From Thermofilaceae archaeon (GTDB taxonomy: Archaea; Thermoproteota; Thermoprotei; Thermofilales; Thermofilaceae): 45,210 nucleotides of DNA. This document shows positions 1,325 through 42,637 of the stretch, in pieces. The notes beneath the pieces were generated by a model, which saw nothing but the letters and a program-made list of their open reading frames with translations, was not told where the DNA came from and searched no databases. The position numbers and the translations under genes are program-made. Location: positions 1-45,210 of the forward strand of contig JAVYWK010000015.1 of NCBI GenBank assembly GCA_038727095.1, in the 5' to 3' direction. Position 1 is the stretch's first letter; the number at the start of each line of letters is the position of its first letter.

Positions 1325-1439
1325 GGGCCCGTGGCCCAGCGGTGGGGCGCCCGCCTTACAAGCTTCAGGTTGCAGCTGAGCGGGTCAATCGGGCTAGGAG
1401 CGCGGGAGGTCCCGGGTTCGAATCCCGGCGGGCCCACCA
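1325..1439 (+). tRNA. tRNA-Val(TAC) with a 40-nt intron (1361-1400) at canonical position 37/38 and encoded CCA
   Basis: Acceptor stem GGGCCCG/CGGGCCC, D stem GCCC/GGGC, anticodon stem CCCGC/GCGGG(1402-1406), T arm CCGGG-TTCGAAT-CCCGG, ACCA end. BHB: CTTA pairs with TAGG, bulges CA|A and AG|C, intron helix GCTT/GGGC. Confidence 0.95.
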
Positions 1440-17170: not shown

Positions 17171-18295
17171 CTACTCGATCCATGCACCAGTGCTTAACTT
17201 CTCCGGAAGGTACTTTTCCGTTAAGAACTTGAAGCCGTAACCGCTGAGCGCTTCGATCTCAACTTTCTCCTGCTTCTCGAGGAATAATTTTAGTTGCCTA
17301 ACCCATTCCTTAGATTCCCTAAACCACGGGTAGTTCAGGAGCTCCTGAGCCCTCTTCACGTCCCTCTCTTTCGCCTTTATAATGAAGTTCCGAGGTATCT
17401 TGTAGTCGTAGATGTCCGTTACAGTGAGTCCGAGAAACCTTGCTCTAGGTGTCGCTAATCGCTCGCTCTCGTAACCGAGAGTTATCGATCCGCTTCTGTA
17501 GACACTGTAAATGTAAAATCCGTAGGGGTCCGCATCCGTGAGCACATACACAGGGAGCCCGTGCTCCTCCCATAACCTCCTTACCATGCGCCTCGTACTC
17601 CTATCCGGCTGCCCCTTACCCGTGATCAGAAGGCATCTATTCTTCTCCCAGAACCTCTCCTTGTTCAGCCTGTTGAATATCGCGTCCTTCTCGATCACTA
17701 AAATGTAATCAGCGTCTACGCTAAGCAGTTCAAGCGAGTCGGGGTTCGGCGGGATGGAGTATGCACCATCACCCATGCGCGAACAATCGATAGTATCTGT
17801 CCCCGATCGAATCACGATGCGCCCAACTATCTTACCCTTGGTATCATGCAGAATACCCATATGCTCCCTGAGGTGCCCTGTAAGCACTTCTAGATCCTGA
17901 ATTATGGAGTCCGATTCCTTCTGCGTATCCCACGTTTCTTCCCTTCTCAGCTTACCGAACTCGTCAATGTACTCTAACGTGTGTTTTCCTGCGTAGTAGA
18001 GATCCCTTATGGTGGGGTAGTCCCCCTCTCGGATAGCCCTAACGATCAAGGAGAGCATCAAGACGGTCTGCATGAACCTTCTCGCTTCCCCCATATCGAG
18101 GAACTCCCTCTTAAGCTTCTTCGAACCTAACTTCAGCAGCTTCGACTTCGAATCCCAGACCACGTTGGCTAGCGTTCTGACAGGTATTTCCAGAGAGAGT
18201 TCCTCGCCGTTCAATACTTGAGAAGCGACTCTGTTTCCAACTTCTTCTAGGGCCTTTAGGGCATCTGCTCTGTGACGATCGATTTGGTTCCTCAC
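17171..18295 (-). CDS. top6A: DNA topoisomerase VI subunit A
   Basis: TIRDLYY catalytic Tyr, IEKDA, TGKGQPD, DADPYG TOPRIM, KVEIEAL. Confidence 0.96.
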   Translation of the reverse strand: MRNQIDRHRADALKALEEVGNRVASQVLNGEELSLEIPVRTLANVVWDSKSKLLKLGSKKLKREFLDMGEARRFMQTVLMLSLIVRAIREGDYPTIRDLYYAGKHTLEYIDEFGKLRREETWDTQKESDSIIQDLEVLTGHLREHMGILHDTKGKIVGRIVIRSGTDTIDCSRMGDGAYSIPPNPDSLELLSVDADYILVIEKDAIFNRLNKERFWEKNRCLLITGKGQPDRSTRRMVRRLWEEHGLPVYVLTDADPYGFYIYSVYRSGSITLGYESERLATPRARFLGLTVTDIYDYKIPRNFIIKAKERDVKRAQELLNYPWFRESKEWVRQLKLFLEKQEKVEIEALSGYGFKFLTEKYLPEKLSTGAWIE

Positions 18296-19812
18296 CGGTT
18301 GCCACCCCTCGCAACTTTACTCCTAACTAGGTCATACAGCTTACTTCGGAGCAAGTTCTCGTCAATGCCTGTCACGTAACTCGTTGATCTAGCAACGTCA
18401 TCAATGTATTTCCTAATCGTTGTTTCCCACCGCTTCACCTCCAGCTGCTTCTCTAAGCGAGAGAGGTAAAGCCTAAGCCTTCGGGCACACTCCCTTACCC
18501 CGGCTTCTAGCTCGCTCTCCAATTCAGGCACGTCGGCTACTGCCTCCTTTCCAACCCCTTTGAAGGGGACCTTCGTGGAGCACACATGAGTCACGATCGC
18601 TAAAGGTGCGGGGAATTCCACCTTGTAGATCCTCCAGTCTATCTTATCGCGCACCACCTTCGTTGACACATCAACACCTTCGTCGTATAGGAGCGGTATC
18701 TTGTTAGCGAACCTCAGCAATGTTGGAGCCTCAGCCGAAGTTATTGCGCCTCCGTAAGCCAGCGCGACTTCAACAATGAAAGGGTATCCGCTATAGGAGG
18801 AGGGGGGTCTCGAGACAGCGGTTACGAACTCGGGGTTTAGAACCGCCTTTACGCCTTCTACGAGAAGCTCTTCGCCAAGGGGGGATAGCATGTTCGCTTT
18901 CGGCCTCCTCCAACCACTAAACTCTTGCATTTTCGATGCTAAAAGCTCTATTTCATCATTTTTCAAGTTCTTTATTTTAGCATTCGGATCGAAGCCAGCC
19001 CACTCGCAGAACTTTGTAGCTGTAGCAGCTCCCACCCCATCAAAGTTCCCTACCAAAAACTCCAGTAGTGTCGTGCTCTTCTTCGTGCTCTCTATCATCA
19101 TCTTAAGCATCTCTACATCCACACCTTTTGGGTGGGGTTTACCTACCACTGGCGACGGTGGCAGCTTGCTCATCGTTCGTTCAAACTTCAACGAGAGGTC
19201 GGGAGCTTCGAAGATTATGGTAGCGTAGGGCGCTATAAGAGCCGTCCTCCTTACGTACTCCTCAACCCTCTTTTTAGCTTGACTCCAATTCCCCCTAAGT
19301 ACAAGCTCCACTCGCGTCCCATGCCAACCCGAGTTGTTCTTTGAGACTTTTATGCTCTTTATTACGGGGATGTTCTTCTCAATGCTGATCATCACTTCAA
19401 ATTCATAGATGAACTTCGAACGCCTAGTAGCAGTTCTCACTTTGACCGGTTGACCAGTAGTCATCTGCGCGTAAAGAACAGCCATCTTCACGCCCAAGCC
19501 GAACACGCCCCTACTCTGCCTCAAAACGTACTTTGACCCGTAGAAGACGCGGCCGAAGACATTCGGCACCTCAAGAGATGAGATTCCAATGCCATTGTCC
19601 TCAACCGCTAGGAAGACCCTACCTTCAGAATCCTCTTTGAGCTGAACCGTGATGTGAGGAAGGATGCCGTGCATCTCAGTAGCGTCAAAAGCGTTCTCCA
19701 TAAGCTCCCTGACAGCTTGGTAAACAGCCCTCGCTGGGTTCGAGAAACCAGCTATTTCCTTATTCCGGTAGAAGAACTCTGAGGGGCTTAGCTGCCTGAA
19801 TCGCTCACTCAC
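18292..19812 (-). CDS. top6B: DNA topoisomerase VI subunit B
   Basis: SEFFYRN, ELMENAFDA, DNGIGI, QSRGVFGLG GHKL motifs, RFANKIPL. Confidence 0.96.
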   Translation of the reverse strand: MSERFRQLSPSEFFYRNKEIAGFSNPARAVYQAVRELMENAFDATEMHGILPHITVQLKEDSEGRVFLAVEDNGIGISSLEVPNVFGRVFYGSKYVLRQSRGVFGLGVKMAVLYAQMTTGQPVKVRTATRRSKFIYEFEVMISIEKNIPVIKSIKVSKNNSGWHGTRVELVLRGNWSQAKKRVEEYVRRTALIAPYATIIFEAPDLSLKFERTMSKLPPSPVVGKPHPKGVDVEMLKMMIESTKKSTTLLEFLVGNFDGVGAATATKFCEWAGFDPNAKIKNLKNDEIELLASKMQEFSGWRRPKANMLSPLGEELLVEGVKAVLNPEFVTAVSRPPSSYSGYPFIVEVALAYGGAITSAEAPTLLRFANKIPLLYDEGVDVSTKVVRDKIDWRIYKVEFPAPLAIVTHVCSTKVPFKGVGKEAVADVPELESELEAGVRECARRLRLYLSRLEKQLEVKRWETTIRKYIDDVARSTSYVTGIDENLLRSKLYDLVRSKVARGGNR

Positions 19813-19886
19813 AGGCAGCTCCCATCAAATGAGCCTTTTTTAAGCCACCTTTAATGAATGAGTGAAACTATTAGTCGTAGAGAAAA

Positions 19887-20039
19887 CTAAGCTACAAACC
19901 TAATCACGTACTTTTTACTTTTGCGACCGGGTATGGCCAACAGCACCGCTATCATAACGGCCAGTATCAAACCTTCGAACCCGCCCATTGATAGCCCCAA
20001 TGCGAGCACCAGAGCTCCGACCAAGATCCTGCTCTTCAC
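19887..20039 (-). CDS. Small hydrophobic membrane protein (50 aa), absent from the ORF track
   Basis: GTG..TAG frame read by hand: MKSRILVGALVLALGLSMGGFEGLILAVMIAVLLAIPGRKSKKYVIRFVA; TAATAAAA 24-31 nt upstream. Confidence 0.65.
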   Translation of the reverse strand: MKSRILVGALVLALGLSMGGFEGLILAVMIAVLLAIPGRKSKKYVIRFVA

Positions 20040-20116
20040 GTAATACCCTAATCATACGCGTATTTTATTAGTATCATTCACCCATAATAGCTCTCCCCGC
20101 CACGCATTCCCCCCTC

Positions 20117-20268
20117 ACGGGCTCTGCAGGCTCGAGAGCCCATCCAGGCTTCATTTGCGGCTGAGCGGGTGTCATGGTGCCCCCAGCCCATGGGACTTAA
20201 CTCCTAAGCCTCCCAACCCTTCGAGCTCCCTTCGAGAAGCGCATCAAGCCTGCAGGACTATGGCCCGC
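20117..20268 (-). ncRNA. Candidate structured RNA of unrecognised family (five-way junction)
   Basis: Closing stems GCGGGC/GCCCGU and CUGCAGGCUUGA/UCGAGCCUGCAG enclose four hairpins; G-U pairs favour the minus strand; TATA-like box at 20291-20298. Confidence 0.6.
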
Positions 20269-20290
20269 GCTGAGTCGTGTAAAAACATCA

Positions 20291-20298
20291 TTATTAAG
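20291..20298. promoter_or_regulatory. Probable bidirectional TATA element (TTATTAAG/CTTAATAA)
   Basis: About 25 nt from ATG 20323 on plus and about 23 nt from the start of the structured region on minus. Confidence 0.55.
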
Positions 20299-20322
20299 GT
20301 ACTAGCCCACCTATACCCTGGA

Positions 20323-21471
20323 ATGCCGGCAAACCTCCCCCCTCAAGCTAAGGCCGCGTGGAAGAGAGTTGAGATGGCCAGGACGAAGGAGGAGCGATTA
20401 CAGGCGCTGATCGAGTTCATGTCAACTGTTCCGCGTCACAAAGGGACGGAAAAACTCCTGATGCAGGTTCGACGCCAGATAGCGCGCTTGAGGGAAGAGA
20501 TAGAGCTCGAGAAGACTAAGCGTAGGAGCAGCGGGAGGGGGCGTTCCCTTTTCGTTGAGAAGGAGGGAGATATCCAGTTGGTGCTGCTGGGGTTCCCAAA
20601 CTCGGGGAAAAGTACTCTCTTTAAAGCGCTGACCGGCGTTGAAGTTCCTTGCGGTGAAATACCGTTTGAAACAGAGAAACCCCAGCCCGGCATGATGATC
20701 TGGGATGGCGGCGTCGAGATCCAGGTAGTTGACACTCCCTCCCTTGTTCCATCGGAGAGTTCATCGCGAAACAGCCTACCGCTTTCGCTGGCTTACAACG
20801 CCGACGCGATAGCCTTGGTGATCGACGGTGAGCAGGACCTTCTCTCTCAGCTGACTATGCTGGAAAGCATGCTGCGCAACAGGGGGATAGCTCTCAAAGA
20901 GGAGAGGAGGAAGGTTGTGATAGAGCGTAGGGGCAGTGGGGGTGTGAGCGTCATCGGTGGTCGGCTACGCGTAAACGAGGTAGCGAACCTGCTACGCGAC
21001 TACGGAATCTACCACGCGCTGGTCTGGCTCACAGACGACGCCTCTCTCGACGATGTGGAAGCCGCTATTCTCGAGTCCACCGCGTACAAGCCGTCGGTGG
21101 TAATTGTGACGAAGCTTGATCGAGACGCAAAAACCCTAGCCATAGTTAGGGACGCCGCGAGCTGGACGAAAGTGCTGTGCTTTGATGGTACTAACTCGGA
21201 GGAGTTGAAGGATGTGATCGGCGGGCACCTCTTCCGAAGTCTCAACTTGATTCGCGTGTACACCTCCAAGGATGGAGAGGTCAGCAAGAAACCACTAGTC
21301 CTGCGGCGGGGAGCGCGAGTAGTCGACGTAGCGGAGAGAATCCACAGTCGTTTAGTCAAAGAGTTCAAATACGCTCTAGTGTGGAATGAGCGCAGGTTCA
21401 GGTTTAATCCCGTAAAAGTTGGTATAGATTTCGAATTAAATGATTTGGATACCATCGAAATCGTGGCGTAA
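20323..21471 (+). CDS. DRG/Obg-family GTPase with TGS domain
   Basis: MPANLPP start, PRHKGTEK, GFPNSGKST, TKLD, LIRVYT..IHS..FKYALVW TGS domain. Confidence 0.9.
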   Translation: MPANLPPQAKAAWKRVEMARTKEERLQALIEFMSTVPRHKGTEKLLMQVRRQIARLREEIELEKTKRRSSGRGRSLFVEKEGDIQLVLLGFPNSGKSTLFKALTGVEVPCGEIPFETEKPQPGMMIWDGGVEIQVVDTPSLVPSESSSRNSLPLSLAYNADAIALVIDGEQDLLSQLTMLESMLRNRGIALKEERRKVVIERRGSGGVSVIGGRLRVNEVANLLRDYGIYHALVWLTDDASLDDVEAAILESTAYKPSVVIVTKLDRDAKTLAIVRDAASWTKVLCFDGTNSEELKDVIGGHLFRSLNLIRVYTSKDGEVSKKPLVLRRGARVVDVAERIHSRLVKEFKYALVWNERRFRFNPVKVGIDFELNDLDTIEIVA

Positions 21472-26569: not shown

Positions 26570-27616
26570 TTGGCCGTGCTAAAGCTGCCCAAAACGATAG
26601 AGTGGGTGGATGGCCGGGTTAGGCTGATCAATCAGCTGAAGCTCCCCTACGAGCTCGAGTACATAGAGACTGTTGAATGGCGCCGCGTGGCTGAGGCTAT
26701 CAGGAGGATGGAAATTAGGGGGGCACCCGCTATCGGTGTCGCAGCAGCCTTTGCGATGGCGTTAGCGGCCATGAAATCTCAAGCGAGAAGGATGGATGAG
26801 TTTCTGGCCGAAATGGAATTGTGCGCTAACGAGCTAAGAAGGACTAGGCCTACAGCGGTTAACCTCTTCTGGGCAATCGAGCGTGTTCTTACGAGCATCC
26901 GAGAGGCAACAACGGTTGAGGAGGCTAAGGAGAGGGCTGTAACCACTGCACTTGAGATCCAGAGGAGGGATGAAGAAGCCAATAGGAGAATAGGTGAATA
27001 CGGTGAGCGGTTAATCTCGGATGGCGACACGGTGATGACGATATGCAACGCAGGATCGTTAGCCACTAGTTACTATGGCACGGCCACTGCTCCAATGTAC
27101 GTGGCCCACGAAAAAGGGAAGAGGTTCAGGGTAATAGCTCTCGAGACCCGACCTTACCTTCAGGGAGCGCGTTTAACGGCATGGGAGTTGAAGGAGGCAG
27201 GGATCGAGGTTAAAATAGCCACGGATAACGCGATTGGGATCATCATGGAGAGGGAACGAATCGACCTGGTGCTCGTGGGTGCGGATAGGATCACCAAAAG
27301 GGGGTACGTTGCGAATAAGGTTGGTACGTACCCTCTAGCTTTGATGGCTAGGGAACACGGAGTACCCTTCTATGTGGCAGCGCCAACTAGCACGTTCGAC
27401 CTGACCATAGAGAAGGGGGATGATATACCGATTGAGGTCCGATCAAGCGACGAAGTTACAGTCATTTTTGGGCGCAGAATCACACCGCCGGGTGTGGAGG
27501 CACTGTACTACGCTTTTGATGTGACGCCGCCAAAGCTGATCACAGGGATAGTAACTGAGAGGGGAATCATCTATCCACCATACGAGAAGAGCATACCAAG
27601 CCTCTTCAACGGCTGA
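26570..27616 (+). CDS. mtnA: S-methyl-5-thioribose-1-phosphate isomerase
   Basis: RGAPAIG, RPTAVNL, CNAGSLAT, ETRPYLQGARLT, GADRI, NKVGT and FDVTP motifs. Confidence 0.92.
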   Translation: MAVLKLPKTIEWVDGRVRLINQLKLPYELEYIETVEWRRVAEAIRRMEIRGAPAIGVAAAFAMALAAMKSQARRMDEFLAEMELCANELRRTRPTAVNLFWAIERVLTSIREATTVEEAKERAVTTALEIQRRDEEANRRIGEYGERLISDGDTVMTICNAGSLATSYYGTATAPMYVAHEKGKRFRVIALETRPYLQGARLTAWELKEAGIEVKIATDNAIGIIMERERIDLVLVGADRITKRGYVANKVGTYPLALMAREHGVPFYVAAPTSTFDLTIEKGDDIPIEVRSSDEVTVIFGRRITPPGVEALYYAFDVTPPKLITGIVTERGIIYPPYEKSIPSLFNG

Positions 27617-27624
27617 TAGAATAC

Positions 27625-27699
27625 AGCGGTCCTCCGCCGCGATCTCCTCACTCTATCAGGCGGGGGCAGGTCTACCTTGTCATCCCGCTTAGTCTTCAC
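27625..27699 (-). ncRNA. Candidate C/D box guide sRNA
   Basis: BRE/TATA GAAAAGTTAAAAAT upstream; AGCGG/CCGCT terminal stem; GGGATGA..CTGA-TAGA-GTGAGGA..AGGA; alternative parse starts at GTGAAGA (27699). Confidence 0.55.
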
Positions 27700-27746
27700 G
27701 TTAACTTCAAGATTTTTAACTTTTCGCCGCCTGTAGAGTCTTCCGA

Positions 27747-28256
27747 TTATCGTAACCGACGCCCGCAATAGGGGCATATGGTGTGGATGTCGCCAAAGGG
27801 AAGGGTTCTACCGCAGAACGGACACTTCTTCTGAACAGGTACAGTCGTGGTAGGTGCCTTCCTTTCTACTCTATCTGGGCTGGGCCTTACAGTTCGAAGA
27901 GGAGTCTCAAGTGCTGCGGCTTCTCTAGCCTGCTCACTTTTTCTAGCTTTAGCTGGCACAGGGGCTTCCTCACTCGCAACTCGCGTGGCGTGAGAGAGCT
28001 CGTGCACGACCATTACGAGCGTCGCTGCCAGAATACGTTTAAGTGCCATCAAAGCGATAATAGTTGATGCTACGCTAGTGAGCGCCACTAACACCAAGCT
28101 AATTGCTAAGGCCTCGTAAATGCTAGGGTTGAATACAAGCAACACCATCGCCGATAAAACTACAGGTATAGGGGATACCCCAAACAGTATTATCAAGTAG
28201 CGTTTCATAACTTTTTGACTTACTTTTTCAAACCTCTCCATGTATTCTCTCATCAT
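27747..28256 (-). CDS. Membrane protein with C-terminal double CPxCG Zn ribbon
   Basis: Two hydrophobic segments, Pro/Ala/Thr-rich linker, CPFCG..CPYCG. Confidence 0.8.
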   Translation of the reverse strand: MMREYMERFEKVSQKVMKRYLIILFGVSPIPVVLSAMVLLVFNPSIYEALAISLVLVALTSVASTIIALMALKRILAATLVMVVHELSHATRVASEEAPVPAKARKSEQAREAAALETPLRTVRPSPDRVERKAPTTTVPVQKKCPFCGRTLPFGDIHTICPYCGRRLR

Positions 28257-42514: not shown

Positions 42515-42637
42515 CGTCTAGTAGGCCACCTTTCCACATATATATGGCTTTCCTGAGCGTAAAGCTCGCGGAATTTAAGCAGTTTACTTAGCCGTAGCAC
42601 CCAAAAACCTTATTTCGTTTCCCAATGAATCGACCAT

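Follow-up and report, generated by a model that had tools for sequence, protein, structure and literature searches.

The window, that is, the whole stretch of 45,210 nt that was analysed (contig JAVYWK010000015.1 of the Thermofilaceae archaeon assembly GCA_038727095.1), contains an intergenic region whose flanking genes point apart, with a DRG-family GTPase gene on the plus strand and a small ORF followed by top6B on the minus strand. Between them lies a 152-nt segment of the minus strand that an earlier reading of the sequence, hereafter the original prediction, had proposed as a highly structured RNA of a new family. The features of the locus are the following:

20323–21471, plus strand: DRG-family GTPase gene, translated, with orthologues in relatives
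20289–20296: TATA-like TTAATAAT, recognised by eye, 21–28 nt upstream of position 20268 and ~25 nt before the ATG of DRG, shared with the RNA according to the original prediction
20117–20268, minus strand: 152-nt candidate element with helices P1 and P2 and four hairpins, from the sequence and RNAfold
20215–20236, minus strand: 11-nt unit repeated imperfectly in tandem, with 9 of 11 positions identical, recognised by eye, part of the first hairpin
20061–20070, minus strand: TATA-like box of the small ORF
19887–20039, minus strand: ORF for a small hydrophobic protein of 50 aa, start codon GTG, translated, upstream of top6B
18292–19812, minus strand: top6B, topoisomerase VI subunit B gene, named from a reading of the protein, at a position conserved in relatives

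The start of the DRG gene was compared with that of its orthologues, and the alignment begins at residue 1 in 20 out of the 21 matching relatives (the G006 copy is broken). No stop codon interrupts the DRG frame in the 93 codons that precede the ATG (20044–20322, plus strand), which produces a spurious 438-aa ORF from a TTG; as a coding sequence this extension was rejected, being of low complexity and not open in G002, the sister species, whose DRG protein is 98% identical. The small ORF has tblastn matches or equivalent ORFs in the syntenic relatives, and throughout the family it retains its place between DRG and top6B. Its promoter region is ~95% identical to that of G002 and its GTG lies ~22 nt after the TATA-like box, so that the ORF looks leaderless. 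The nucleotide identity of the ORF itself to G002 (66–76%) places it among the most diverged coding stretches. In the region of the candidate, the minus strand also contains ORFs of 33 and 37 aa, and by eye G002 has one of 49 aa. These were rejected as genes because they have in common only C-terminal residues, whose codons lie in the alignable 3′ stretch; further upstream, the frames of the two species differ. A run of five T on the minus strand (20281–20285) separates the TATA-like sequence at 20289–20296 from position 20268, and the GC content of two 100-nt intervals covering the candidate is 59–65%, compared with 56.6% for the genome. Metatranscriptome contigs from two runs fell on DRG and top6B only, none of them covering 19862–20326, and thus have no bearing on transcription of the element; several show numerous differences from the window and look like a G002-like strain. 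Over 901 nt, two DNA runs showed 2 and 4 differences, all of them outside the element and too few for a covariation test.

We then examined the fold of the candidate. All the helices listed in the original prediction are present in the minus-strand sequence of 20117–20268, with their G-U pairs. The RNAfold minimum free energy (MFE) structure kept P1, P2, the GCUUCU/GGGAGC hairpin and the AGCCU/GGGCU hairpin, and the centroid structure retained in addition CUUAG/UUAAG and part of GGCUGGG/CUCAGCC. The folding energy of the minus strand was −64.5 kcal/mol, compared with −61.55 ± 4.06 kcal/mol for dinucleotide-shuffled sequences (z = −0.73), and 53 out of 200 shuffles folded at least as well. The plus strand scored better (z = −1.91). 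The description of the element as highly structured was therefore not borne out, its folding energy being no better than that of shuffles. A count of uninterrupted helices of at least 12 bp (Watson-Crick and G-U pairs, span up to 160 nt) on both strands of the window gave 55, where 30 shuffles averaged 55.1, and P2 is one of these 55. When the segment was folded in a 215-nt context, with 30-odd extra bases on each side, P1 and P2 were absent from the MFE structure. The possibility that the inverted repeat of P2 delimits a segment able to invert was rejected: the segment has no inverted match in G002 and the contigs of the two DNA runs show one orientation.

The claim that the candidate carries no signature of a known RNA family was confirmed, given that no Rfam match appeared there either at gathering thresholds or in a permissive scan. 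At gathering thresholds, the only match in the whole window was a tRNA (1325–1436), and the permissive scan of 19950–20450 gave only matches with E > 2. In size and GC richness the candidate is like the archaeal RNAs represented in Rfam (RNase P, SRP, tRNA, C/D, H/ACA and riboswitches) but it had no match to them at any threshold, and their box motifs were not seen by eye. RNase P and SRP RNA were rejected, the genes for both being located on contig C7 and the RNaseP-T model giving only weak matches elsewhere; C/D and H/ACA sRNAs were rejected for lack of convincing box motifs by eye. On C7, the SRP RNA (27162–27477, minus strand) and the RNase P RNA (27621–27935, plus strand) are divergent and 144 nt apart.

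We also weighed whether the segment might be a tRNA gene that escapes detection because its introns are multiple or permuted, a situation known in this archaeal family. The tRNA genes of this genome are intron-rich and several anticodons were missed by ARAGORN, which is what such a reading would lean on. At the candidate, nevertheless, ARAGORN with introns enabled found no tRNA in the sequence, in 17170 single-deletion variants or in 1935 circular permutations, while the control tRNA was recovered, and the Rfam tRNA model gave no match, so that we regard a hidden tRNA as extremely improbable. The tRNA in the window is a tRNA-Val (anticodon TAC; 1325–1439, plus strand) with a 40-nt intron, detected by Rfam and by ARAGORN only with introns enabled. 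Even with this option, the genome-wide ARAGORN list is missing several anticodons that would be expected (Trp, Cys and Asp-GTC among them), which indicates that many tRNA genes of this genome probably have unusual introns.

Six species representatives and many metagenome loci share the gene order DRG, small ORF, top6B. In all the syntenic relatives except G002, the start codons of DRG and of the small ORF are ~100–150 nt apart, a distance that gives room for two promoters and none for the candidate. The extra block was found only in this species, in the metagenome locus L030, whose element is identical, and in G002. A covariance model of the candidate fold gave no match in 100 relatives nor, with filters off, in 13 syntenic loci, and RNAalifold applied to the alleles of the window and of G002 retained none of the candidate helices in the consensus. 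The conservation and covariation in relatives on which the original prediction was to be judged were thus not found for this fold. For the same locus, a role as a cis-regulatory leader or riboswitch is not supported, given the short spacing in the other relatives. The mutually exclusive hairpin GGGCUCU/AGAGCCC, which had been read as switch-like, does exist.

To place the block in its evolutionary context, we compared the window with G002. BLAST gave two alignments, 1–20090 (91.4% identity) and 20294–42358 (91.5%), with one gap between them:

20091–20293: block of 203 nt that cannot be aligned to G002, the single break in a 42-kb alignment

At this site G002 carries 161 different bases. The next most divergent 100-nt stretches still show 66–74% identity, and four-fold degenerate sites are 79% identical between the window and G002 (3191/4040). 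A block that is unalignable while four-fold sites keep this identity has been turned over or replaced, beyond what neutral drift would produce. When the two alleles were compared with each other, their global alignment score was reached by 27 out of 500 shuffles, which is borderline, and the local score was not significant. The 3′ part shared by the two alleles is roughly 60% identical by eye, with indels, a value below that of the four-fold sites, and the 11-nt unit duplicated at 20215–20236 is present as a single copy in the G002 allele, where the alignment shows a gap. A 27-nt match between the G002 allele and a conserved non-coding sequence of the genome that contains the window (C1:72253–72279) was judged to be due to chance (E ~0.07 per genome); this match recurs because its target is conserved.

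Comparable breaks are not restricted to this locus, as ~10 of them occur across 259 kb of G002 contig C1. Nine breaks were examined and, at five of them, six variable segments belong to one and the same GC-rich repeat family. The copies at the breaks show 67–83% mutual identity, except for one 80-nt stretch with 97.5%. The window contains a second polymorphism of this kind, since the site that corresponds to its positions 42554–42601 has in G002 a 459-nt insertion (C1:17347–17805) of the same repeat family.

We next characterized this family. In the present genome (G000), there are eight copies of its right end (RE). Six out of the eight directly follow a tnpB-like ORF, whole or fragmentary, in the same orientation, and the other two are short copies that consist only of a left end and a right end. 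The two halves of the repeat are adjacent in two copies and ~2.5 kb apart in three, whose interior holds an ORF of ~450–485 aa. The copies of both kinds are located as follows:

C21:15897–16251 and C1:101744–102324: short copies without tnpB, insertion-polymorphic with respect to G002
C38:4417–~7500 (L129), C3:56394–~59400 (L130) and C3:11961–~14800 (L131): full-length copies of ~3 kb, each with a tnpB-like ORF of ~450–485 aa

The full-length copies have ~500 nt more of non-coding sequence ahead of the left end, and L129 also contains an upstream ORF of 152 aa with no Pfam or NCBIfam match. The RE was found in 3 of the 41 genomes searched, with 8 copies in G000, 7 in G002 and 20 in G020, a patchy spread that fits a mobile element. 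The family thus combines multiple copies with insertion polymorphism between G000 and G002, while the window copy is single and diverged. G020 belongs to a different genus, g7 (its copies include L138, L141 and L144), and the other seven genomes of that genus that were searched have none, which suggests horizontal spread or a recent burst.

The protein encoded by the tnpB-like ORF matched the Pfam Cas12f1-like TNB zinc-ribbon domain (PF07282) with E = 2.4e-4, a score below the curated cut-off, and it had no NCBIfam match and no sequence match in the PDB. A large protein collection yielded nine homologues, nearly all of them labelled hypothetical and belonging to Thermofilum or Thermofilaceae assemblies, and both the CxxC...CxxC motif and the D/D/D positions are conserved in eight to nine of the nine. 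The AlphaFold model of the protein had a mean pLDDT of 70 and a pTM of 0.62. When this model was compared with the PDB using Foldseek, all the matches listed (E from 2e-8 to 8e-5) were Cas12, TnpB or Fanzor nucleases or close relatives of them, including the TnpB-ωRNA complexes 8h1j and 8iaz, at modest TM-scores of 0.24–0.40. Taken together, the modelled structure and the conserved positions indicate that the protein of this family is predicted to adopt a TnpB/Cas12 RuvC-like fold with a zinc ribbon. A Y1 transposase (TnpA, PF01797) gave no match in the genome, which is 92% complete, and for this reason the family was assigned via TnpB alone.

In contrast to the candidate fold, the RE of the family showed the marks of a conserved RNA structure. 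The alignment of 30 RE copies to the model contains 24 pairs, in which 94.6% of the cells are standard pairs, compared with 46–55% when the partners were slid by 1–3 columns. Compensatory changes, affecting both sides of a pair, were found at 11 pairs, compared with 3.4 ± 1.4 in shuffles, none of which (0 out of 500) reached 11. As the 30 copies were aligned by fitting them to the model, the alignment favours it; both the slid controls and the compensatory changes still stand clear of this effect. When read in the sense of tnpB, several of the pairs are predominantly G-U, which implies that the structure belongs to this strand. The RE element of this TnpB-like family has no entry in Rfam.

These properties resemble those of the reRNA, or ωRNA, of TnpB elements of the IS200/IS605 superfamily such as ISDra2. 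According to passages of Karvelis et al. (PMC8612924), the reRNA of TnpB is ~150 nt long; its sequence comes from the 3′ end of tnpB together with the RE, and the flank supplies the last ~16 nt. The RE of the family studied here likewise lies 3′ of a gene for a protein with the TnpB fold, on the same strand; it spans ~150–190 nt with a conserved, covarying and strand-specific structure; and it ends where the transposon does, with flanks that differ past this point, a layout that agrees with the same passages of PMC8612924. It departs from the reRNA systems in that the family is known here from DNA alone, its protein has no NCBIfam or PDB sequence match, and no TnpA was found. By analogy with known TnpB elements, the RE of the intact copies probably encodes the scaffold of a guide RNA (ωRNA/reRNA).

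We then asked how the block in the window relates to this family. The block was compared with the RE family only after it had been noticed, so that the comparison is partly post hoc. The block divides into two parts, which are listed together with the flank that follows them:

20092–20223, minus strand: RE-like part of the block, comprising the 3′ two-thirds of the candidate and 25 nt past its 3′ end
20224–20293, minus strand: 5′ part of the block, 70 nt, holding the 5′ strands of P1 and P2 and most of the first hairpin
20075–20090, minus strand: flank 3′ of the RE-like end, which would be the guide position in an intact TnpB element, as deduced from the end of covariance model R2 and from the part of PMC8612924 cited above

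A profile built from 11 RE copies, comprising right ends from G000 and G002, was searched with nhmmer and matched 20104–20215 on the minus strand with 9.8 bits. With an E limit of 10, the window gave no other match (E = 0.011 for this one), and the corresponding E value over the whole genome was 0.45. Dinucleotide shuffling of the block 2000 times never gave 9.8 bits, the best score being 4.8. The covariance model R2, made from the same number of RE copies (11), gave its top match in the window at 20092–20223 on the minus strand, with 15.1 bits and E = 0.13 over 65 kb, and the model ends (position 153) at 20092, right beside the point where the G002 alignment stops (20090/20091). Also, blastn of the block against the full-length C38 copy gave two colinear matches, both within the RE. 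The G002 allele matched the same region of the RE profile weakly, with 2.6 bits, a score that 6 out of 2000 shuffles reached. A profile of 30 RE copies gave no match on the window block, and single-sequence searches detected no relative of the candidate in its own genome. Considering these comparisons of sequence, the similarity is weak but true homology between the block and the RE is likely.

The 5′ part of the block falls outside the RE profile match and was not matched by two left-end profiles either; a likeness to a left transposon end that was perceived by eye in these 70 nt was rejected, as neither profile supported it. Within the RE-like part, the structure of the family is not kept. 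In the R2 alignment at least 8 out of the 24 family pairs are broken in the block copy (8 are marked as non-standard), and the central hairpin, which occupies 29 model positions, is replaced by 12 nt. When the RE-like part was folded alone, its MFE had z = +0.3, while five family copies ranged from −3.4 to +0.65; in this fold GGGCUCU/AGAGCCC forms inside a closing helix that resembles, by eye, that of the family. No tnpB-like match was found anywhere on the contig of the window copy (C15), where the DRG gene and the small ORF are its neighbours. In P1 and P2, bases derived from the RE pair with the 5′ part of the block, and both helices are absent from every other copy. The five-way junction of the original prediction is itself not supported: P1 and P2 are not family helices, they are absent in the sister species, and the corresponding model matched none of the 100 relatives. 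Most likely, this junction is a fold peculiar to a relic, in which RE-derived sequence is paired with the 5′ sequence of the block. The choice of the minus strand fared better, since it is the strand that resembles the covarying RE family, although the five-way fold drawn on it has no support.

On this basis, the explanation we favour, and hold to be probable while leaving appreciable room for others, is that a TnpB-type insertion sequence left the block behind as a decayed solo RE, which would be ωRNA-like by descent and is probably inert. A TnpB-type element of the IS200/IS605 superfamily would have landed, in a hot-spring archaeon, between the promoters of DRG and of the small-ORF/top6B operon; the 3′ part of the block (~130 nt) would descend from its RE; and tnpB and the left end would then have been lost from the window copy. 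With tnpB and the left end gone, the central hairpin replaced and at least 8 out of 24 pairs broken, what is left would most likely be inert DNA. Independent internal deletions, or repeated turnover of transposons at one site, may have produced the alleles of the two species, and this would account for junctions that are common to both and interiors that differ, in the sole unalignable stretch of 42 kb. A point against a single shared insertion is that it would predict ~79% identity in the 3′ part, and the identity observed by eye is roughly 60%. The same evidence can be set against a plain lineage-specific spacer, made of filler sequence and indel turnover, whose likeness to the RE would be a coincidence driven by composition. 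Spacer length does vary among the relatives, the 11-nt tandem duplication is the kind of trace such turnover might leave, the fold is no better than that of shuffles, and both the silence of the 30-copy profile and the genome-wide E of 0.45 speak in its favour. A coincidence of composition sits poorly, nonetheless, with the fact that none of the 2000 dinucleotide shuffles reached the profile score, with a colinear match that has the expected orientation and stops at the block edge, with the five other breaks between G000 and G002 that carry the same family, and with a divergence far beyond the 79% identity of four-fold sites. We thus consider the plain spacer unlikely, yet still to be given some weight.

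Two further explanations would grant the block a function as RNA. The element could be a solo guide-RNA gene, exapted after the loss of the transposon, transcribed from the shared TATA and bound in trans by TnpB that the intact copies supply, and it would then target the neighbouring flank, serving in homing or in modulation of the small-ORF/top6B promoter. The block is oriented in the ωRNA sense, the RE-like part alone keeps in its MFE a family-like closing helix together with GGGCUCU/AGAGCCC, a TATA-like box recognised by eye lies 21–28 nt upstream of 20268, the genome holds intact tnpB genes, and the RE-like end adjoins sequence that is ~20 nt from the TATA-like box of the small ORF. Such a guide would have to work with at least 8 out of 24 family pairs broken and 12 nt in place of the central hairpin, with an RE-like part whose folding energy (z = +0.3) is that of random sequence, with no alignable version in the sister species and, by eye, with no T-rich terminator after the element, and we consider it a small chance. 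That a domesticated guide is loaded on TnpB and directed beside the small-ORF/top6B promoter by its flank-derived 3′ end is more improbable still; if true, it would represent natural RNA-guided control of a promoter, or protection of a locus, in a hyperthermophilic archaeon. The remaining explanation, that of the original prediction, is an independent and undescribed structured ncRNA or riboswitch-like leader with a five-way junction. Its helices with G-U pairs on the minus strand, the GC content of 59–65% over the element and the TATA-like box at a suitable distance are compatible with it. In contrast, the energy (z = −0.73) and the loss of P1 and P2 in the 215-nt context, the lack of matches in the 100 relatives and the syntenic loci, the G002 consensus that keeps none of the listed helices, the missing room in the other syntenic relatives and the promoter-like region, conserved and separate, of the downstream small ORF all argue against it. 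The original prediction had named the lack of conservation and covariation in relatives and a folding energy no better than that of shuffled controls as findings that would speak against such an RNA; by these sequence criteria it is already refuted, and we hold it to be highly improbable.

The implication of the favoured explanation, a decayed solo RE, is deflationary, as a striking intergenic fold becomes the scar of a transposon, and the RE-like window copy is most likely an ordinary relic and not a new regulatory RNA. A rule follows, namely that a candidate should be checked against a sister genome and against the repeats of its own genome before its fold is called a new RNA. The finding of broader interest concerns the intact copies. 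Thermofilaceae carry a family of TnpB-like nucleases that is mostly labelled "hypothetical protein" in public records, and this nuclease together with the covarying RE makes up a candidate thermostable pair of TnpB and guide RNA. Our literature search found no paper that joins TnpB, archaea and Thermofilum.

Measured against TnpB reRNA/ωRNA elements, the window copy stands apart, being solo, decayed and without tnpB; at least 8 of the 24 family pairs are broken and no more than 8 are kept, so that most of the family structure is gone. Short non-autonomous derivatives of IS200/IS605 elements are called MITE- or PATE-like. The genome has short copies of this sort, formed by a left end and a right end without tnpB and insertion-polymorphic with respect to G002; the window block differs from them in having no detectable left end and in being single-copy by sequence search. 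One of the short copies, C21:15897–16251, is placed between two tRNA genes, and at that site G002 carries a different segment of 543 nt that is partly related.
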